From positions 12,045-76,044 of the forward strand of contig CAZYIM010000008.1 of the NCBI GenBank assembly GCA_964647565.1: DNA of 64,000 nt. The letters run 5' to 3'. Position numbers and translations under genes: made by a program. Shown here piece by piece: positions 19,153-49,723 of the stretch (position 1 is its first letter; each line of letters begins with the position of its first letter). The notes beneath the pieces were generated by a model, which had not been told where the DNA came from, ran no database searches, and saw nothing but the letters and a program-made list of their open reading frames with translations. The DNA comes from an uncultured Methanosarcinales archaeon. Its GTDB lineage: Archaea; Nanobdellota; Nanobdellia; Woesearchaeales; CAZYIM01.

Positions 19153-20127
19153 TTGCATTTGAAATCCAAGAAGTTAATTGATGATTTCAAAATGAAAAAA
19201 GATAAAAATCATATCAAAATGAGAAATAAAGTTGAACTTCTTTTAGATTTAGGTTTTTCAATTGAAGATATAGCTGCCAAACTTCATTTATTAATTGGAA
19301 CTCGCTTTATTAGAAAATCAGTAAAATGGTATAAATACTGCATCATGGCAAAGAAAAACCAAAAGATGGCTATTTCCAAACATCCTGGCCTTTACAGCAA
19401 GGCAGGTAAAATCGCACAACAAAAACATCCCTGGTTGGGGAGAGAATTGGGAAAGAAATATGGGCCGATCCAAGGAAAGAAAAATGCCGAAAGACTTCGA
19501 GGGAATTCTAAATATTTTTCAAAAATAGCCAGAAGATTACATGAAATTAATCCTGAACACTCTAGAAGAAATATGAAAAAAGCTCACAATACTATGAAAC
19601 GTGAAGGGACCTTCTACAAACATCAATTTAATGCATCCCTGAAATGCATGGAAAAACATCCTAATCAACTTAAAGAAATGTCAAGAAAAGCCCACGCTTT
19701 ATACCCTCTTGCCCAATTGGCAAGAGAAAGTAGAAGAAGGCATTACCCTTATAGATTTATGGATTGTTTTTTTGATTCATTCAATGAAATGAAATTATGT
19801 ATGTTGTTAGTTGAAAACGGATTGATGGAAAAACCGATAGAAGGGAAAAACGTGCATTTTCATTTATATAATCATCATATTGATTTCTTTGTTAAAAAAA
19901 CGGTCTTTATTGAATATCATCCTCCAATACAGTATGGTGGTAAAAACGAGACTCTAAAAAGTTATTATAAAGAACGCAGGAAACTTTTAGATAGTCGCGG
20001 ATATAAAGAATATCCCTTAATTGTATTTGACAGATTGAATCGTACCGAAAGTAAAATAAATAAAATAAAAAAACTAATCGCCCTCAAATTGAATCATAGA
20101 ATGAACTTTCAATCCTTGCTTTTCTAA
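19153..20127 (+). CDS. putative free-standing (homing-type) endonuclease, C-terminal PD-(D/E)xK/DUF559-like domain
   Basis: Basic repeated helices (KHP..., NUMOD-like); C-terminal FDSFNE...HIDFFV...FIEYH; AT-rich; overlaps apt 3' end convergently; start may be ATG at 19192. Confidence 0.7.
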   Translation: MHLKSKKLIDDFKMKKDKNHIKMRNKVELLLDLGFSIEDIAAKLHLLIGTRFIRKSVKWYKYCIMAKKNQKMAISKHPGLYSKAGKIAQQKHPWLGRELGKKYGPIQGKKNAERLRGNSKYFSKIARRLHEINPEHSRRNMKKAHNTMKREGTFYKHQFNASLKCMEKHPNQLKEMSRKAHALYPLAQLARESRRRHYPYRFMDCFFDSFNEMKLCMLLVENGLMEKPIEGKNVHFHLYNHHIDFFVKKTVFIEYHPPIQYGGKNETLKSYYKERRKLLDSRGYKEYPLIVFDRLNRTESKINKIKKLIALKLNHRMNFQSLLF

Positions 20128-20601
20128 TTTATTTCTACCTCCTAAATCTGGCAATTCGATTACAAAAGAACATTCGATAAGATCTCCTCCTATTTTTCTT
20201 ATTAACTTAGCTGAGGCCCCCGCGGTACCTGCGGTCGCAATCAGATCGTCTACAAGCAACACCTTGTCACCTTCCAGGATAGCATCTTTATGGACCTCGA
20301 CTGCATCCTTGCCGTACTCCAGCTCATACTCTTCCTTGACGGTTTCTGCAGGCAGTTTGCCTGGCTTTCTTATCAGCACAAAACCTAGTCCTAGTTTGTA
20401 GGCAAGCACAGAGCCAAAGATAAAACCCCTGCTCTCGATACCCGCAATCTTGTCTATCTTCATATCCTTGTATCTTTCGTAGAATTGATCGCAGGTCTGC
20501 TTGAAGGCCTCTGGATGCTTTAGAAGCGTTGTAATATCCCTAAACATAACACCCTTGATCGGAAAGTCGGGCACTGTTCTGATAGTTGATTTTAAATCCA
20601 T
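20074..20601 (-). CDS. apt: adenine phosphoribosyltransferase
   Basis: PDFP..GVMFRDITTLL, GIESRGF, RKPGKLP, YELEYG, LLVDDLIAT; GGGGTGA RBS. Confidence 0.96.
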   Translation of the reverse strand: MDLKSTIRTVPDFPIKGVMFRDITTLLKHPEAFKQTCDQFYERYKDMKIDKIAGIESRGFIFGSVLAYKLGLGFVLIRKPGKLPAETVKEEYELEYGKDAVEVHKDAILEGDKVLLVDDLIATAGTAGASAKLIRKIGGDLIECSFVIELPDLGGRNKLEKQGLKVHSMIQFEGD

Positions 20602-20691
20602 ATTGATCACCCCGATTGAAGTTTCTTGTACTGATTTATATATTTTACCAAAGGGAGATGAAGGGGGGATGTATTTTATTAAATGGTGATA

Positions 20692-20776
20692 GAAAAATCA
20701 CAACAACATTGGCACAGACGGATTCCTTTACGGAATCCTACTTGCCTTTGGCTCGCCTGGCCATGTTGTGATTTTC
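20692..20776 (-). ncRNA. structured element copy A: unknown three-way-junction motif
   Basis: Minus strand UGGC-CAGGC-GA-[GCC AAA GGC]-AAGUA-[GGAUUCC GUAAA GGAAUCC]-GUCUG-U-GCCA closed by a 12-bp outer stem. Confidence 0.55.
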
Positions 20777-20848
20777 CAGCGCTTTGGCTGCCCACGAATG
20801 TTTCTTCGATGAGTAAATATTATATATTAGCTTTACTTCCCCTCTTCC

Positions 20849-21322
20849 ATGGAGGGTTGTACTTTTTGTGAAATCTATGAGAAGAAGGTGAATATTATCA
20901 ACGAGAATGAACATTTCTATTCTAGGTTTGACCTCTTTCCAGTCTCTCCAGGTCATGTAGAAATAATCCCTAAGAAACATATTGTCTCGCTTTTGGATCT
21001 TACTAATGAAGAGTGGGCGAATCTGCAGCAAGCCATAGATCATACGTGGAAGATCGTTCAACTGGCTGACAAGGCCAAGGTCTATGAAAATCTGTTAGAG
21101 AGTCCGTATAACAAGAAATCAGAAGTGTATCTTCGATTGATGCTGGAACATCCTGCTATTGATTTAAAGCCAAGAGATTTCAACTCAGGCAATAATGATG
21201 GGCCTGCTGCTGGCAGGACAATTGACCATCTGCATTATCACATAATTCCTAGATACGCGGGTGATATGGAGAAACCTCTTGGCGGCATTAGGAATATCAT
21301 CCCTGGTATGGGTAGATATTGA
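20849..21322 (+). CDS. HIT-family hydrolase
   Basis: CTFC, PVSPGH..IIPKKH, AGRTIDHLHYHIIPR (histidine triad). Confidence 0.92.
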   Translation: MEGCTFCEIYEKKVNIINENEHFYSRFDLFPVSPGHVEIIPKKHIVSLLDLTNEEWANLQQAIDHTWKIVQLADKAKVYENLLESPYNKKSEVYLRLMLEHPAIDLKPRDFNSGNNDGPAAGRTIDHLHYHIIPRYAGDMEKPLGGIRNIIPGMGRY

Positions 21323-21399
21323 TTCTATTGGTGGTTATTTATCTACTTCTGAGTGGTAAAAACAAAACATTTATAAACTCATTCTATTGCTTTAACATC

Positions 21400-22227
21400 A
21401 TGGTTAAAATTGAAGCTCCTTTGTTGACAACGTATTTTGTCAGGCACCAGGAATCAGTCCAGAACAAACAAGGTTTTGGACCTTCTGATACTGATCTGAC
21501 TGAGGAAGGCAAGCAAAACGTCAGGGATATAGTCAAATTGTTCAACCATGTTGGTGTTGATAATATCGACTATATATTTTGTGGCGATCTGAAAAGACAT
21601 GATCAGACGTTAAATGCACTTCTTGATCAAATAGATTTCAAAGGACATATACGATTTGATGAAAAATTGAATGCATTCTTTAATCATCCTATGTTAGAAG
21701 GTGATCCTGAAAAGACTGAAAAAGAGTATGATCTTGCAAGATTCAAGAGAGGAGACAATGGCCTTTACGAAATCAGATTATCTGATAATAAAACTCTCGG
21801 CTTTGATCCCCAAGGAACAGGCGTTTATCCATTTGATCCTCTTTATTCCTGGGCGTATTTTGATAAGGATATAAGACAAGCAGTATTTCCTGATGTGCAG
21901 GATTTGGCTACGTTTGATGAAGTTGAGAGGAAGGTAAAAATGTTCCAGGCCTCATTGATTCACGAGATCAAACCTGCAAGACCGCAGAATGTGGTTGCAA
22001 TCTCTTCCTGTTCGCCAAGCGGTTATAATCTGGAATATTCTGCCTTTGAAACTATTGGTGAAAACTTGTTTGTATCTTTGGGCAGTGAGAATAATTCGAT
22101 TTTCTATCAAAAACATGATGAACTGATGATTCTTGGATATTCTCGAGAGGATTATCTTCAGAACAATGATAAACTTAGAGTAATAGAAGGAAATATAAAG
22201 ATCAAGAATTTTATTAATAGAACATGA
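21400..22227 (+). CDS. histidine phosphatase superfamily protein
   Basis: YFVRHQES...LTEEG...DLKR..QT (RHG-like motif). Confidence 0.75.
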   Translation: MVKIEAPLLTTYFVRHQESVQNKQGFGPSDTDLTEEGKQNVRDIVKLFNHVGVDNIDYIFCGDLKRHDQTLNALLDQIDFKGHIRFDEKLNAFFNHPMLEGDPEKTEKEYDLARFKRGDNGLYEIRLSDNKTLGFDPQGTGVYPFDPLYSWAYFDKDIRQAVFPDVQDLATFDEVERKVKMFQASLIHEIKPARPQNVVAISSCSPSGYNLEYSAFETIGENLFVSLGSENNSIFYQKHDELMILGYSREDYLQNNDKLRVIEGNIKIKNFINRT

Positions 22228-23684
22228 AGCCTTTCATCAATCTGGGTACTAGAAACAAAGGCACTTTCTGGGAATATTTGAGCGCTTATTCTTTTCGGCA
22301 TACCAAACTTCCTATAACTAAATATGAAATTTCCTCGTTTCTTGGTTATGGGGCTGGCGAGCCAAACATGCATTGCCATAATAAAGATGTGATTGAGCAA
22401 ACCATTAAATTGATGATGGCTGAATTCAACCAAGGCAAATACAATCAGAAATTCTTTAATATTCTGGATGCAGTCTATCGTTTGCCATATGATGATATTA
22501 AAATAAAACTGAAAACATCTCTACCTAAGAATCTGCTTGATATAATAAATCTCTTTGAGACTGTTTTCAAAGCAATGGCAGAAACTCATAAGCCCATGTT
22601 GTTGGCATTGAAATCACAATACCTGAACAATTTTTTCCGTGAAGAACTAAAAAAGGTTTTGAGTAAGAGTGAAAAAAACAGGCTTGTTGAATATACAACA
22701 CTGCTTCTTACACCAACCAAGCTAACATTTGTTCAAATGGAAGAAACCAAATTGTTCGAGCTTCATAAAGAATTTGAAACCTTATATGAAACAAAAAGCA
22801 AATCTTTGTTTAAGGAATTTTGTCGATTACCAAATATTCAGAAAAAATTAAAGACATTGGCTCGAAGTTATGGTTGGTTTCATATGGAATACTCTCAGTT
22901 GCCCTGGGATGTTAAAGAGCATGAAGCACACTTATGGAACCGGATTGAAAAAAGTTCTGAAATTAAGGCGCCAGCAATTAAGATAACAGAAGCAAAACTT
23001 GCACAAAAAGAATTCTTTAAGCGACATCCGGATTCAGAAAGATTGAAAAAATTGACTTTCGCTCTACAGGAATTCTCGATGATTCTAGACTTTTCAAAAG
23101 CAATTGTGATCCATGAGTCTTACCTTGCAAGGCCATTGTTTAATGAGATAGCAAGAAGATTAGATATTAGCTGGAATGAGCTGCTCTATTTGACCATGCC
23201 AGAGATAGTGGATCTTCTGAAGAAAGATTGCAAGGCCGACAAGACACTAATCGCTCTGAGGAAGAAACACAGATTAGTCTTGCAGCGGGATGGCAAGATT
23301 CGTGTCTATCAGGGGCCAGAAGCATTGAAGCTTGCAGAACAGCTGATTGATGACCAATCAGATCAAGAAGAGATCCGTGGCGTTATTGGTTGCCAGGGAA
23401 AATATAAGGGTGAGGTAATAATCATTCGCTCGATAAAGGATAAAGCTAAGTTTCGCAAAGGCGCTGTCTTAGTGACACATGATGGATCTGCAGAGATGAC
23501 CATGTTCCTTAAGCAGGCAGGTGCAATTGTTACAGAACAGGGAGGTATGATCTGTCATGCTGCGATTGTTGCCAGGGAGATGAAGATTCCGTGTATTGTG
23601 GGCACTAAGAATGCAACAAAACTTCTGAAAGACGGTGACCTGGTCGAAATCGATGCGTTTAGGGGAACAGTGAAAAAGATCTGA
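22224..23684 (+). CDS. PEP-utilising enzyme mobile (phospho-His) domain protein
   Basis: AIVTEQGGMICHAAIVAREMKIPCIVGT..AT..LKDGDLVEIDA..G. Confidence 0.88.
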   Translation: MKPFINLGTRNKGTFWEYLSAYSFRHTKLPITKYEISSFLGYGAGEPNMHCHNKDVIEQTIKLMMAEFNQGKYNQKFFNILDAVYRLPYDDIKIKLKTSLPKNLLDIINLFETVFKAMAETHKPMLLALKSQYLNNFFREELKKVLSKSEKNRLVEYTTLLLTPTKLTFVQMEETKLFELHKEFETLYETKSKSLFKEFCRLPNIQKKLKTLARSYGWFHMEYSQLPWDVKEHEAHLWNRIEKSSEIKAPAIKITEAKLAQKEFFKRHPDSERLKKLTFALQEFSMILDFSKAIVIHESYLARPLFNEIARRLDISWNELLYLTMPEIVDLLKKDCKADKTLIALRKKHRLVLQRDGKIRVYQGPEALKLAEQLIDDQSDQEEIRGVIGCQGKYKGEVIIIRSIKDKAKFRKGAVLVTHDGSAEMTMFLKQAGAIVTEQGGMICHAAIVAREMKIPCIVGTKNATKLLKDGDLVEIDAFRGTVKKI

Positions 23685-23689
23685 TCACT

Positions 23690-23968
23690 TTACTTTTGCC
23701 CGCAACAGTTCTTGTTTAATGGCTTGTATAACAATTCCCCTTTGTCGTCGACTGCTCCACATCTGGTGATCATCATGGCCATGTTTTCTTCGACAGCAAC
23801 TTTAAAGAGTTTACTAGATGTTGGACATGAACTATAAGGTGGATTATCTTTTTTCCTGTCGCAATTGTAACAGAGGCATTCTTCTCGCCTGGCCTCATCC
23901 ATTTCTTTATTTGCCCAGATCTTAGGAGGAATCTCCTTTTTTGGGTTTGCAATTAATTCTATTCCCAT
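23690..23968 (-). CDS. small Cys-rich hypothetical protein
   Basis: GGGAG RBS; ECLCYNC...SCP...RC. Confidence 0.6.
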   Translation of the reverse strand: MGIELIANPKKEIPPKIWANKEMDEARREECLCYNCDRKKDNPPYSSCPTSSKLFKVAVEENMAMMITRCGAVDDKGELLYKPLNKNCCGQK

Positions 23969-23986
23969 TTTTTAACTCCCCCACCT

Positions 23987-24721
23987 CTATTTTTTCTTAA
24001 CAACCTCTCCGAAAGCATCTCCATAAAGAGTGTAACTAGTGATGCCCATAAAACCCGAGTAGATGATTGATAGTATGAAGTAGATTAAGAAAGCAAATCC
24101 AGTCCATATTAGCGGTATAGTGCCGCTGCCCATCACTATTGAGGGTAATGAGATCAGCCTATAGATTATCTGCAGTACGGTGGATCCTACAATGGAATAC
24201 GCAAGGATTATCAGCCAGGCAATAAGATATGATTGGGTGAATGCACGTTTGAAGATCAACTTAAAGTTAAATGCATCTCCAAATTTATTCTTATTGATAA
24301 AATGCATGATCGCCATTGGTGATATATAGCCATAAAAGACAGCAAAGATCACGAAAAACAGTAACAATACAAGGAAGATCAGTATTGCAACAACTATCGT
24401 TCCAGTACCAGTTAATGTTGATGCGCCTGTGCTGAACAATTTTAGTGAGAGTACAATCACAATAGCAATTGCTATTACAATTAGTATGGGTATACAATAG
24501 ATGATAAGTATTATAGAGCCTAAAAGTCCGTTTACCCAGAGCTGGCTCCAGTTTTTCCATTCTGGCAGCTCAAACTTTTTTTTCATAGCAGACTTTGCAC
24601 ATTCAAAAAAATATCCTATTGTCCAGAAATTAATAATTGGTAGCCAACAAAGAAGAATCGCGATCAGGAGTTTCTTGAAATCTTTTAGAGGCCTTTTTAG
24701 TGCCAGAACAATTTCAACCAT
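23987..24721 (-). CDS. DUF4013-like membrane protein
   Basis: PIINF..IGY...LPEW.NW..L...G pattern and multiple TM helices. Confidence 0.75.
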   Translation of the reverse strand: MVEIVLALKRPLKDFKKLLIAILLCWLPIINFWTIGYFFECAKSAMKKKFELPEWKNWSQLWVNGLLGSIILIIYCIPILIVIAIAIVIVLSLKLFSTGASTLTGTGTIVVAILIFLVLLLFFVIFAVFYGYISPMAIMHFINKNKFGDAFNFKLIFKRAFTQSYLIAWLIILAYSIVGSTVLQIIYRLISLPSIVMGSGTIPLIWTGFAFLIYFILSIIYSGFMGITSYTLYGDAFGEVVKKK

Positions 24722-24784
24722 TTTGTTATTCTTTTCCTTTGATTAATACTTTATAAAATTATCGAAACACATTCTATCAGAAAC

Positions 24785-24927
24785 GACTCTATCCAGAAAG
24801 GAGGATTTATCCCGCCTAGCGTAGCCGAGTGTTTAGGATCTGATTAAAATAGGATCGGTTTACAGTCGATAACATAATGGGTGCGAAGCGCGGGAAAATT
24901 CTCTGCGTGAGCATTCTGGACAGAGCA
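24785..24927. mobile_element. 143-bp MITE, copy 1
   Basis: Imperfect TIR gactctatccaga/tctggacagagca; perfect 8-bp target duplication TCAGAAAC (24777-24784, 24928-24935); highly similar to 27358..27500. Confidence 0.85.
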
Positions 24928-25032
24928 TCAGAAACGAAAAATTTATATATATTATTTGTTAGAATCTTAGTATTGTAATGAACACGCAAAACAATTTCTG
25001 TAATTTTTATAAACAAGAAACATGTCTATAAA

Positions 25033-25137
25033 ATGAGTCCGCTGGATGAATCCCAACCATTAGATCGATGTAAGCATTGTGGAGCAAAGATTTCTCCTGA
25101 TGATGTAATCTGTCCCAAGTGTGGTGCAGATATATAG
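25033..25137 (+). CDS. 34-aa zinc-ribbon microprotein
   Basis: MSPLDESQPLDRCKHCGAKISPDDVICPKCGADI*, with CxxC...CPxCG; TATA (tttataaa) about 25 nt upstream. Confidence 0.7.
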   Translation: MSPLDESQPLDRCKHCGAKISPDDVICPKCGADI

Positions 25138-25149
25138 AATTTGTTTTTT

Positions 25150-25926
25150 TTATTCTTTCTTGTCTGCTTCAGGCTTTGCATCAGCTGGTTTTCCTTCTTC
25201 AGCTTTACCTTCACCAGGAGCAGCCGCAGCTTCTTCAGCAGGCACGACCTTGTTGATGACAACCTCTGAGATTTCAGCTTCTCGCATCTTATCAACAATG
25301 GAAGACCTTGTCTTACCGGTCATAGATGCTAGTATCTCTTTGGCTTTCTTTTCTTCTTCTTCATGTTTCTTGACAAGCTCTTCTTGGAGTTTCTTTTTCT
25401 CTTCTTCCAAAGCAGCTCTCTCTTCATCAGACAACTCTGTCTTTTCCTCTTTGATTTCCTTGTCAAACTTACCTTCATCAATCAGCTTAAAGGCTTCAGA
25501 TGCCTTGACACCTTCAACCATGATGCCCATAGAATTACAGGTTCCGACTATTTCCTTGATTTTCTCTTTCATGGTTTTTCCTAAAAGAGCGTCTTCCTTC
25601 ATCTTAGCGATCTTGATAACTTGAACAATGGCCAGGTCTGCAATAAGCTCTGATTGAGGTACTCCTGATCCTTTTTCAACGCCTGCTTCTTTCTTGATTA
25701 GTGAAGCTGCGGGTGGAGTTCCTATAGAAATCTCGAAAGCCTTGGTGTCAGAGTCTATGATGACTTTGACTGGTACCTGCATTCCCTTAAAGGCCTCGGT
25801 CTTTTTGTTTATCTCTGCAACTACTTCGCCGATATTTACGCCTTTAGGTCCTAGAGCAGGTCCTAGTGGAGGTGCAGCTGTTGCCTTTCCTCCTTCTACC
25901 AATGCTTCTACAGTTTCCTTTGCCAT
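25150..25926 (-). CDS. rpl11: 50S ribosomal protein L11 with about 100-aa C-terminal extension
   Basis: GGKATAAPPLGPALGP, GMQVPV, PPAASLIKK, EIVGTCNSMGI. Confidence 0.95.
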   Translation of the reverse strand: MAKETVEALVEGGKATAAPPLGPALGPKGVNIGEVVAEINKKTEAFKGMQVPVKVIIDSDTKAFEISIGTPPAASLIKKEAGVEKGSGVPQSELIADLAIVQVIKIAKMKEDALLGKTMKEKIKEIVGTCNSMGIMVEGVKASEAFKLIDEGKFDKEIKEEKTELSDEERAALEEEKKKLQEELVKKHEEEEKKAKEILASMTGKTRSSIVDKMREAEISEVVINKVVPAEEAAAAPGEGKAEEGKPADAKPEADKKE

Positions 25927-25974
25927 AATAGTTCTCAGGAAAAACAGGGCATTTATAAAGGTTATGAAAACCTG

Positions 25975-26163
25975 GGCTATTATGAAAACCTCTGGATTTT
26001 TATGTTCGTCTGTGCCATTGTTGTCATTGTTTTCGACTGAAAAGGAGAACAACAATGGAAAGGCCAGACGTAATCGACGAGGTTAAGCTATAAAATAGCT
26101 TTGTTCTCGTCGATGTAGTAGGACATGAAAATCCTAAAAGAAGTAAAGGGTTTCATAATAGCC
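25975..26163 (+). mobile_element. 189-bp MITE carrying a permuted copy (C) of the three-way-junction motif
   Basis: TIR ggctattatgaaaacct/agggtttcataatagcc (1 mismatch); 9-bp direct repeat GAAAACCTG at 25966-25974 and 26164-26172. Confidence 0.8.
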
Positions 26164-26179
26164 GAAAACCTGTAACTAA

Positions 26180-27313
26180 TCATCCAAGCTTTTCTGTGAT
26201 CAGACACTTGGGTTTATCAATAAAAATGTGTGCGCATTTGTCTCCTTTTAGTTCTGATTCCAGATTGTTTCTGATTTTCCAGTATTCATCTGGAGGAAAA
26301 CTTGCGTGTAGTACTGCTTTACCGTAATTCATCTTTTCCAATTCTTCTTTTAAGTCTGTAAATATACATGATTTGATCAGTTTAAACCCTGTCAAGAAAG
26401 TATTATTTATTTGCGCATCACAGGTTATCAAGACCTTGCCGAAGTCGAGTTTTTTTGCATTTGGAGTATTCTCTAAGGATCTTAAAAGGATGTCAAGCAT
26501 ATTTGCTTTAAGTATGGCTTTGTCCGGATCATATATGAATTTCCTTGGTGTTTTTGAAAAACCTGAGCATTCTATAATTTTGCCGTCCCAGTTAAGCATT
26601 GCTTCTTCTGGTAGGGCTACTACTGAGGTCCTACACTTAGCTAGCTTACCGAAATAAGTGGTAAGTCTATTTAGAGAGTTATTAATAGATATATATTCAA
26701 GTTCACAATCTTCTGGAGGCTCTTTGAGCTGGGGTGGAAGCTCAAGTGAAAGATTGGCCTTGATTTTTTGGCTTGTGCTTAAGAGAAATCCGAGCTTGGG
26801 TGAAATGTTCTCGATATTCCTCGATTTTTCACTTGGTGCTCTTTCTGGATCACAGAATACAATATTAGCATCTTTTATCTTGCTTAGTTCTTCTTCTGCC
26901 AGCCCATGGATAAAAATAACATTATGTGATCCTGCTTGTTTGATATTAAATTTAGCATACTCTATTTTTCTTTTATCCTTCTCAATAGCATATACCTTGT
27001 CACATTTTTTTGCAAATGCAAGAGTTTGGATGCCAATTCCACATCCAACATCCACAAGGGTTTTGCACTTTAACCGTCTTGCTCTGTATTCTGCTACCAG
27101 AGGATTGGTTGCAAATCTTAGGTCATTTTTTTGATAGATAAAATTATCAGGTAGGTGTTTGGTCTTTTTTCCAATTATCCTGGCTTTGGCTATCTCATAG
27201 GCTTCTGAATCATACTCTTTTCCCAGATTGTCAACTATCTGTTCTTGAGAATATCCTGCCCTAAGCCAATCCTCTATTCTTCTGGCTGTTTTAAGAAGAG
27301 ACTTAAATCCCAT
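26180..27313 (-). CDS. class I SAM-dependent methyltransferase (RNA methyltransferase-like, C-terminal THUMP-like region)
   Basis: VDVGCGIGIQ, AIE.D, FCDPER. Confidence 0.8.
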   Translation of the reverse strand: MGFKSLLKTARRIEDWLRAGYSQEQIVDNLGKEYDSEAYEIAKARIIGKKTKHLPDNFIYQKNDLRFATNPLVAEYRARRLKCKTLVDVGCGIGIQTLAFAKKCDKVYAIEKDKRKIEYAKFNIKQAGSHNVIFIHGLAEEELSKIKDANIVFCDPERAPSEKSRNIENISPKLGFLLSTSQKIKANLSLELPPQLKEPPEDCELEYISINNSLNRLTTYFGKLAKCRTSVVALPEEAMLNWDGKIIECSGFSKTPRKFIYDPDKAILKANMLDILLRSLENTPNAKKLDFGKVLITCDAQINNTFLTGFKLIKSCIFTDLKEELEKMNYGKAVLHASFPPDEYWKIRNNLESELKGDKCAHIFIDKPKCLITEKLG

Positions 27314-27357
27314 AAGGTATGGTCAAGATATTTGGATTAAAAAAGTTATTGATTATG

Positions 27358-27500
27358 GGCTCTGTTCAGCAAGGAGGATTTATCCTGCCTAGCGTAGCCA
27401 AGTGTTTAGGATCTGATTAAAATAGAATCGGTTTACAGCAGATAACATAATGGGTGCGAAGCGCGGGAAAATTCTCTGCAAAATCATTCTGGACCGAGTC
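27358..27500. mobile_element. 143-bp MITE, copy 2
   Basis: TIR ggctctgttcag/ctggaccgagtc; flanks TGATTATG / TGATTATC (7 of 8 match). Confidence 0.85.
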
Positions 27501-49585: not shown

Positions 49586-49723
49586 AAATAATAAGCATTC
49601 ATACATGGCACAGACGGCCAAATAAAGATTTGTCCTACTCGGCTAAAGCCTCGCCTGGCCATGGTTCGCAAGCTTCTTTGCGAACCCGAGAACAAACGAA
49701 GTGACCATGAATGCTTATTATTT
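49586..49723 (-). ncRNA. structured element copy B: unknown three-way-junction motif inside a 17-bp perfect inverted repeat
   Basis: aaataataagcattcat/atgaatgcttattattt; minus-strand core UGGC-CAGGC-GA-[GGC UUUA GCC]-GAGUA-[GG...CC]-GUCUG-U-GCCA. Confidence 0.6.

Follow-up and report, generated by a model that had tools for sequence, protein, structure and literature searches.

A MITE with a conserved, circularly permuted three-way-junction core, possibly acting as RNA, in a Woesearchaeota-like archaeon

Introduction

What kind of object has landed just upstream of the ribosomal protein gene rpl11 in the 64,000-nt stretch of DNA analysed here (the window), and does its folded interior do anything? 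The stretch comes from a marine Woesearchaeota-like (DPANN) archaeon, whose own genome assembly (2.68 Mb, 86 contigs, 38.4% G+C, 87% complete) is called the source genome below. The object, at positions 25975-26163, had been predicted from the sequence to be a miniature inverted-repeat transposable element (MITE), into which a circularly permuted copy of a three-way-junction motif is built. The reading that we favour, with modest confidence, is that of an IS5-family MITE with a conserved permuted three-way-junction core that probably acts as RNA. Below we give the evidence for the element, for its fold and for the permutation, and then weigh this reading against others.

The element and its insertion

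The borders of the element are as follows.

25966..25974, no strand: left target-site duplication GAAAACCTG, 9 bp (direct repeat from the repeat finder)
25975..25991, + strand: left terminal inverted repeat GGCTATTATGAAAACCT, 17 nt (repeat finder)
26147..26163, - strand: right terminal inverted repeat, reading GGCTATTATGAAACCCT on the - strand, 17 nt (repeat finder; end-motif search)
26164..26172, no strand: right target-site duplication GAAAACCTG, 9 bp (repeat finder; the contigs of another copy diverge at 26164)

The predicted 17-bp inverted ends and flanking duplications are both real: the ends at 25975-25991 and 26147-26163 are 94% complementary according to the repeat finder, and GAAAACCTG stands on both sides. 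The element is 189 bp long and carries no transposase gene, the open reading frames (ORFs) that overlap it being only read-throughs from the flanks. Three copies are present in the source genome, namely the window copy, a 96%-identical copy on contig C40 with a different 9-bp target duplication (GTAGAATGA), and one that is cut by the start of contig C20. In public contigs from four DNA runs, the contigs derived from the second copy part from the window sequence exactly at 25975 and 26164; among these contigs, which can show presence only, none joined across the MITE as an empty-site allele would. The end motif, searched with at most three mismatches, was found three times in the window against 0.27 expected. 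Inverted ends, a duplication of fixed length that differs between copies, a short multi-copy body and an autonomous element with the same ends have all been found, and window 25975-26163 is a MITE, that is, a non-autonomous IS5-family transposon, with two independent 9-bp target duplications. The mobility claimed for it is borne out by these two duplications, by the divergence of contigs at the exact borders and by the IS5-family element with the same ends in relatives.

The 12 nt at 25962-25973 (GGTTATGAAAACCT), just left of the MITE, repeat the inner 12 nt of its left end (25980-25991), and may be either a landing site that resembles the element end or the remnant of an older end.

Fold of the interior

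The interior of the window copy is composed of the following parts.

25994..26006, + strand: arm C, 3' strand of the module and here the 5' half of the closing stem; pairs with 26122-26134 (repeat finder and fold)
26007..26016, + strand: core strand CGUCUGUGCC, in which CUG-U-GCC is the 3' strand of arm A with U26013 bulged (fold, covariation)
26017..26061, + strand: extension of arm A, closed by a hairpin (ATTGTTGT/ACAACAAT), with a GGAAA bulge (fold)
26062..26072, + strand: core strand GGCCAG-ACG-UA, in which GGCCAG is the 5' strand of arm A (covariation)
26073..26114, + strand: arm B, with outer stem ATCGACGAG/CTCGTCGAT, a GUU/(U)GUU internal loop and the inner hairpin AAGCTAT-AAA-ATAGCTT (repeat finder, fold)
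26115..26121, + strand: conserved junction strand GUAGUAG, consensus RAGUAG (alignments)
26122..26134, + strand: arm C, 5' strand of the module and here the 3' half of the closing stem (repeat finder, fold)

All pieces on which the prediction had been built are present: CGTCTGTGCC(A) at 26007-26017, GGCCAGACG at 26062-26070 and GTAGTAGG at 26115-26122, together with a stem B whose 9-nt strands (26073-26081 with 26106-26114) are 100% complementary and a closing stem C (25994-26006 with 26122-26134) in which inspection shows two G.U pairs. The repeat finder itself delimits this stem as 25994-26005 with 26123-26134. The bases G26008 and U26009 belong to the junction, and C26007 probably pairs with G26121. 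When the + strand was folded, as had been proposed for a check, the minimum-energy structure obtained without constraints was this three-way junction (-80.6 kcal/mol, z = -12.8); the - strand of the MITE folds at -71.3 kcal/mol. The proposed comparison with shuffled controls gave a divided result, because the ordered core pair CGTCTGTGCC-N20-50-GGCCAGRCG beats chance (1 in the window, 0 in 100 shuffles) whereas single short pieces do not: neither GTAGTAGG alone (1 match versus 0.70 expected) nor CGTCTGTGCCA with at most two mismatches (9 versus 7.44) is significant. The three exact matches of CGTCTGTGCCA are the three copies of the motif that the original prediction had in mind.

The permuted order across the order of archaea

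BLAST against 61 relatives turned up a single 74%-identical MITE, in genome G055, with the same ends, the same permuted order, a different stem C and the target duplication TTATTTATA; a third permuted lineage was found in G138. In the four MITEs from these three genomes, 96.8% of the permuted structure is paired and 9 of the 40 pairs are compensatory. The covariance model built from the four (R2) has matches in 22 of 151 genomes of the taxonomic order to which the archaeon belongs, with up to 21 copies per genome, the few weakest matches being cross-matches to the differently ordered copies described in the following section. Among 151 genomes sampled from the phylum, 10 have a match, and all 10 belong to this same order. 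The exact pattern of the permuted arrangement gave no match in viral contigs and occurs in 59 stretches of named public genomes, nearly all of them under the label Woesearchaeota, Nanoarchaeota or "archaeon"; the other taxon labels we take for binning or naming errors. The window MITE had been regarded as the exceptional copy, and this view has to be reversed: the arrangement that is open at arm C is the usual form, serving as the standard core of an order-wide MITE superfamily.

Aligned to R2, 79 copies, of which 74 are distinct, form alignment A6. Among the 74 distinct copies the paired share of cells is 95.3%, and both partners have changed in 33 of 38 pairs; the covariation score is 0.722, whereas shuffles score 0.169 and slid partners no more than 0.118. 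Changes on both sides were found in every pair of arm C (helix 1; 12/12, 92.8% paired), of the arm A extension (helix 3; 8/8, 94.2%) and of arm B (helix 4; 9/9, 95.0%).

The inverted ends, which form the outer part of arm C, differ between genomes (GGCTCTGTCC.., GGCTCAGTAG.., GGCTGCGTTC.. and (G)ACATTGTTT..). In a second permuted MITE family of the source genome (C25:26036-26156, 121 bp; three further loci, two of them at contig ends), the ends GGCTTTGTAGAAAAAGT themselves constitute arm C, and they resemble the ends of the IS5 element of that genome.

A separate observation concerns genome G093, where seven near-identical copies (L103, L123, L126-L130) have a permuted element nested in arm B of an element on the opposite strand. 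The flanks of this composite, ..CCCTACTCC.. and ..CTACGTCTGGCCATG.., are reverse complements of junction words, and the arrangement looks like a MITE-in-MITE composite that was later multiplied as one unit.

The same core opened at arm A

The core also occurs in the order GGCCAGGCG..GAGUAG..CGUCUGUGCC, in which arm A is the open end. Exact and relaxed regular expressions found this order repeatedly in the source genome; the relaxed search gave 34 matches, of which 26 were kept and 8 were dropped as chance, being armless, in GC-rich contigs or coding sequence. A covariance model built from 15 short arm-A-open copies (R1) has 29 matches in the source genome at E <= 1, and the copies there number about 30 overall. 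Two lie in the window.

20709..20764, - strand: arm-A-open copy (R1, 72.8 bits)
49605..49662, - strand: arm-A-open copy with an additional 5' hairpin (R1, 68.4 bits)

In the 15 short copies 95.2% of cells are paired and 9 of 18 pairs have changed on both sides, and none of 500 shuffles reached this paired share; the fold is likewise supported on 51 arm-A-open copies from 21 genomes. R1 has matches in 21 of 151 genomes of the order, a count that takes in the source genome and G131, which is flagged as unpublished and on which no conclusion rests; most genomes have 1-2 copies, while G020 has 12 and G080 has 8. Arms B and C of these copies range from 3 bp to multi-hairpin insertions, and the minimal core is 52-56 nt. 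In viral contigs the arm-A-open pattern matched twice, both times in GC-rich coding sequence, and these matches were judged to be chance. At C19:8319-8499 of the source genome (L009), a medium and a short copy, 43 nt apart, stand divergently on opposite strands.

Both alignments have in common the CAG/CUG pairing with a bulged pyrimidine, the R-Y-G-A strand, the G-A-R-Y-A-G strand and CGUC. The medium architecture of the MITE's arm B (outer stem, GUU/GUU loop, inner hairpin) recurs in several arm-A-open copies of the source genome, and words of the arm A extension, GCATTCATGG with CCATG.ATGAATGC, are common to the open and hairpin-closed forms. The two orders are homologous and represent a true circular permutation, opened at arm C in one form and at arm A in the other. 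The claim of a structured module with a genuine permutation is strongly supported, by the covariation in the four MITEs as well as in the 74 copies.

The two forms differ in their marks of transposition. Of 35 permuted copies, 13 lie symmetrically between exact direct repeats of 8 nt or more, as compared with a mean of 0.1 and a maximum of 2 when flanks were re-paired, and the permuted copies without such repeats include the seven nested copies of G093 and copies whose inverted ends lie beyond the 14-nt limit of the search. The same repeats flank 1 of 53 arm-A-open copies (control mean 0.94), which have neither inverted ends nor target duplications. Only the permuted form looks transposed. An all-against-all blastp comparison of the ORFs around 26 arm-A-open loci of relatives found no shared neighbour protein at E 1e-8, and therefore these copies do not sit at one conserved locus. 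Abutted junctions of a right end with a left end, which would link both orders, were searched for in 401 genomes and none was found.

In three arm-A-open copies, L016, L014 and L011 (C32:24663-24717, C29:11145-11196 and C19:32858-32912), arm C (e.g. GACTTTTCTATAGGAAAAGG) looks like the inner halves of GGCTTTGTAGAAAAAGT placed back to back with the tips deleted. If this likeness is real, arm-A-open copies would descend from end-to-end junctions of MITEs.

Pairing at the junction

Junction positions are numbered here by the columns of alignment A2, against which the short copy L004 is offset from position 16 on (L004 24 = A2 25, 45 = 50). In the 51 arm-A-open copies, positions 10 and 25 are C-G in 39, U-A in 11 and U-G in 1, and positions 9 and 26 are G.U in 30, A-U in 18 and G-C in 3. 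Positions 28 and 50, i.e. the last junction G and the first C of CGUC, are G-C in 48, G.U in 2 and A-U in 1, and the tandem G.A pairs (flanking G.A and A.G) are replaced by G-C and C-G in two genomes. All 74 distinct permuted copies are compatible with pairs 9-26 and 10-25. The pairs that the original prediction had assigned to these bases show no change on both sides in the 51 copies.

For the stem A proposed in that prediction, covariation suggests a different arrangement of the three junction-proximal pairs (ACG with CGU); neither the three-armed topology nor the permutation is affected. It is more likely that the ACG and CGU bases find their partners in the GUAGUAG strand and at the start of stem C (its first base), and thereby extend stems B and C via the tandem G.A. 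In the window copy this revised pairing gives A26068-U26119 and C26069-G26118, with G26070 opposite A26117. It is possible that both junction pairings occur, either in alternation or combined in base triples, and the sequence of the MITE is compatible with each.

The IS5-family partner

The prediction had asked which transposase recognises these ends, and the probable answer is an IS5-family DDE transposase, carried by elements of relatives that have the same ends. With at most one mismatch, the ends occur in 61 of 401 genomes of the order (a count that takes in the source genome and G315, flagged as unpublished, on which no conclusion rests), whereas a control with the reversed pattern gave isolated single matches only. 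Pairs of ends 150-224 bp apart are MITEs with various interiors. Three pairs are 1019-1023 bp apart, in G267, G223 and G013. The 1.02-kb element of G267, the only one of the three at which the flanking duplication was read (CTACAAAAC, 9 bp), has a transposase gene split into parts of 193 and 128 aa. That of G013 has an intact gene of 305 aa, whose product matches Pfam DDE_Tnp_1 (9.2e-14) and DUF772 and scores 145 bits against the NCBIfam model NF033579 "IS5 family transposase" (cut-off 140 bits). By these family matches the 1.02-kb partner element belongs to the IS5 family. Past the 17-nt ends, the MITE and the G267 element are still 87% identical over 31 nt on the left and 79% over 39 nt on the right. 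The IS5 element of the source genome itself, 890 bp on contig C3, has the ends GGTTGTGTAGAAAAAGT and the duplication GTTTTTTAT.

Several likenesses around these elements may be recorded. In the leader of the G267 element (L059 1540-1600; also L094 and L065), a hairpin stands directly before the transposase start codon, and its arms GTTCTCGTC .. ATCGACGAGGT are the two arms of the MITE's stem B in swapped order. The leader and arm B have an 11-mer and a 9-mer in common, with BLAST E values of 0.24 and 3.2, which make this a lead only; the likeness may be a trace of the origin of arm B, or chance. At the right end of the C3 element (L205 2085-2119), the hairpin GTCTGG-TGTG-CCAGAC adjoins the right inverted end and looks like arm A of the module (CGTCTG-T-GCC with GGCCAGACG) in collapsed form. 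MITEs of G396, G291, G250 and G363 that have the same ends as the window MITE (L083, L089-L093) contain, on either strand, a G-rich hairpin GGGGG-UUG-YCCC-loop-GGGG; in many relatives, low-copy arm-A-open copies have this same G-rich motif as their arm B.

One strand selected, as RNA or as DNA

Helices of the permuted form contain 146 G.U against 13 A.C (about 11:1), and those of the arm-A-open form 51 against 2 (about 25:1), whereas a DNA palindrome decaying symmetrically should yield about 1:1. This excess of G.U over A.C indicates that one strand is selected as a single-stranded fold, and that fold is probably RNA. Under the reading that we favour, an IS5-family DDE transposase supplied in trans would move the MITE and leave 9-bp target duplications, and the paired transposon ends would extend or form arm C of the module. 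The module would act as RNA, its active part presumably being the conserved junction: CAG/CUG with the bulged pyrimidine, R9-Y26, Y10-R25, the tandem G.A, A27, G28-C50, G51 and U52. Because the active part would be the junction, the position of the chain ends would be indifferent. Our best guess is that the junction would be a recognition or processing site that serves the element, whether through a bound protein or by processing itself.

A number of points weigh against this reading. For the RNA claim, the G.U excess speaks in favour, indirectly, while the searches for transcripts and for transcription signals do not: no RNA run containing window 20000-27500 is listed, and in 29 + 24 arm-A-open copies neither a TATA-like motif at a fixed distance nor an asymmetry of T-runs between the sense and antisense sides was found. 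Nor is there a bias of orientation relative to neighbouring ORFs in the source genome (co/co 11, anti/anti 9, anti/co 9, co/anti 3), where the counts include two MITE copies and the ORF calling was crude enough to misjudge the side of rpl11. DNA energy parameters return the same fold (z = -11.95), so that it may instead have a role as single-stranded DNA. As to the partner, no element with exactly these ends was found in the 87%-complete source assembly, and the only DDE_Tnp_1 gene of that genome, which lies in the 890-bp element on C3, is 36% identical, that element having ends that are related. As to the statistics, alignments A5 and A6 were fitted to model structures (the A5 row L030 comes from an unpublished genome), the invariance of the core in A6 is partly selection since 59 of its loci were chosen by exact core motifs, and the copies are kin, so that counts overstate independent events. 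Lastly, this reading does not account for the multiplication of the arm-A-open copies.

The strongest rival, which we consider unlikely, is that the fold acts as single-stranded or cruciform DNA, either aiding the meeting of the ends with the transposase or being recognised in replication or repair. It would account well for the stable fold under DNA parameters, for inverted ends that are part of arm C in the permuted form and are arm C itself in one family, for the restriction of target duplications to the permuted form and for the negative search for transcription signals; moreover, G.T is better tolerated than A.C in DNA too. What it explains poorly is that arm-A-open copies, which have no inverted ends, still keep the fold, the compensatory changes and the G.U excess, and that other MITEs with the same ends have unrelated interiors, from which it follows that the module is not needed for mobilising these ends. 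IS5-family DDE transposases, besides, work on double-stranded ends, and no need for a specific junction sequence is known.

Is the module a ribozyme?

The permutation invites a bolder proposal, namely that the module represents a hitherto undescribed class of small ribozyme that cleaves itself, whose permutations would correspond to hammerhead types I-III, and that the MITE would spread a catalytic RNA by which transcripts running through the element are cut. We think this doubtful. In its favour are the small minimal core of 52-56 nt, a three-way junction in which some 15 junction positions are conserved while the arms vary freely, two natural circular permutations, numerous dispersed copies borne by a transposon, the strand-specific selection, and the tandem G.A beside one helix at the junction, which recalls domain 2 of the hammerhead. 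Against it, inspection shows no hammerhead core (CUGANGA..GAAA..UH), a search of Rfam up to E = 10 matches none of its ribozyme families, and the revised pairing leaves only A27, G51, U52 and one bulged pyrimidine unpaired, which are few for an active site; it is also generally the case that many conserved structured repeats are non-catalytic. It is equally improbable that we are dealing with a Woesearchaeota-specific catalytic or self-processing RNA in at least two permutations, of which IS5-type MITE ends would form one arm.

Known families do not claim the module. With Rfam 15 at gathering score there is no match in the window (twister, twister-sister, pistol, hatchet, HDV-like and Y RNA included), and at E <= 10 only unrelated families at chance level appear in window 20500-26400 and in 20 loci from at least 15 genomes. 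It does not belong to the hammerheads, the junction strands being RY-GA, GA-RY-A and GU instead of CUGANGA, GAAA and UH. The idea of a Y RNA was rejected as the TROVE domain PF05731 was not found in the 87%-complete source genome, whereas control genomes were positive. By inspection we also rejected a K-turn (there is no 3-nt bulge beside the tandem G.A), a bulge-helix-bulge splicing motif (the closing stem is bulged on one strand only), a mimic of the L11-binding region of 23S rRNA (the likeness consists of short words only) and an integron attC site.

Still less probable, and already disfavoured by the data, is the view that the interior is neutral fold-back filler whose likeness reflects common descent and recent spread. 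MITEs often fold back, copy numbers are patchy (0 to about 30 per genome, with matches in 21-22 of 151 genomes), and neighbour genes are not conserved among the 26 loci, all of which suits this view. Yet arms that are wholly different between genomes keep their pairing, with 33 of 38 pairs compensatory, the junction bases are constant across the order, and the ratios of G.U to A.C of about 11:1 and 25:1 depart from neutral expectation for a decaying palindrome.

Genomic context

The MITE stands between two genes that are both read on the - strand.

25150..25926, - strand: rpl11, ribosomal protein L11, 258 aa (Pfam Ribosomal_L11_N 1.6e-22, Ribosomal_L11 3.9e-19)
25953-25960, - strand: TATA-like TTTATAAA, 14 nt from the MITE end (inspection)
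26180..27313, - strand: class I methyltransferase, 377 aa, the upstream gene (ORF list, domain search)

Along the - strand, the methyltransferase stop codon (26180-26182) is followed by 7 nt, a duplication, the MITE, the other duplication, ATAACC, TTTATAAA, 26 nt and the rpl11 ATG at 25926, which agrees with the predicted insertion just upstream of the rpl11 TATA box; the spacer before insertion was about 55 nt. The sense strand of the module is antisense to both genes, and the insertion has left the rpl11 region with the B recognition element and TATA box intact. We do not think that the module regulates rpl11. That the insertion is a domesticated cis-regulator or terminator, ending methyltransferase transcription or tuning rpl11, is very improbable, for although it lies between the stop codon and the TATA-like box, and several arm-A-open copies lie shortly 3' of stop codons, the module is antisense to both genes, tandem contexts are co-oriented in 11 cases and anti-oriented in 9 (the 9 including two MITE copies), T-runs are symmetric, and the other two MITE copies are at unrelated sites.

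Some observations on the neighbourhood stand apart from the MITE. The L11 Pfam domains end at residue 137 of 258, leaving a C-terminal extension of about 120 aa that has no family match. In window 24769-25019 and 27279-27500, the summed contig depth rises 2- to 5-fold, and variant letters and loose contig ends cluster at 24823-24926 and 27357/27358. Between 24000 and 28000 ARAGORN found no tRNA and Rfam gave no match; the stretches of raised depth could be conserved or repeated non-coding DNA that is common to other organisms of the sample.

Comparison with known systems

Prokaryotic MITEs of the IS5 family are exemplified by the IS1106/IS5-related Correia elements of Neisseria. Like them, the present element is short and non-coding, has the ends of an IS5-family insertion sequence and a target duplication, folds back and belongs to a type found in many intergenic copies. 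Unlike them, it has inside a conserved three-way junction that has kept its sequence better than the inverted ends have, that also occurs without inverted ends and circularly permuted, and that is carried by different sets of inverted ends. The repeats REP/BIME, ERIC, BOX and RUP are likewise scattered through intergenic DNA, fold as RNA or as DNA and in some cases derive from transposons, but they are simple or branched hairpins; we know of no junction conserved across a whole order, and of no permuted isoforms, among them.

Hammerhead ribozymes of types I-III resemble the module in being three-way junctions of about 50 nt, in permutations that are set by the open helix, and in tandem G.A beside a helix, while the module has no conserved hammerhead core and no match to the Rfam hammerhead models. 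Retrozymes (PMC4918200) are similar in placing a hammerhead, a structured RNA, on repetitive, non-autonomous mobile DNA, and differ in that the carrier of the module is a DNA transposon, not a retroelement. A ribozyme reading, if true, would mean that a DNA transposon spreads a ribozyme.

In passages of a census of prokaryotic MITEs (PMC11602168), "IS1106_IS5" appears among the MITE matches, and a Woesearchaea genome has one of the highest archaeal MITE densities, 105 per Mb, so that the MITEs of this lineage have already been counted in bulk; a conserved fold, junction or permutation is not described in those passages, supplementary MITE sequences aside. Nor did we find a prior description of this fold in a literature search of limited coverage.

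Compensatory changes, strand-specific G.U and two permuted orders are the signature by which ribozymes and functional RNAs were found. Should the module prove to be RNA, it would join the small number of structured RNA families known in DPANN archaea, and a DNA transposon would be carrying an RNA device; otherwise it would show that in IS5-type MITEs selection can act on the shape of single-stranded DNA. MITEs are usually seen as structural junk of which only the ends are conserved, whereas here the ends vary and an inner junction of about 50 nt is kept across a DPANN order. What is new in comparison with the known systems is a MITE with a selected, permutable structured core.

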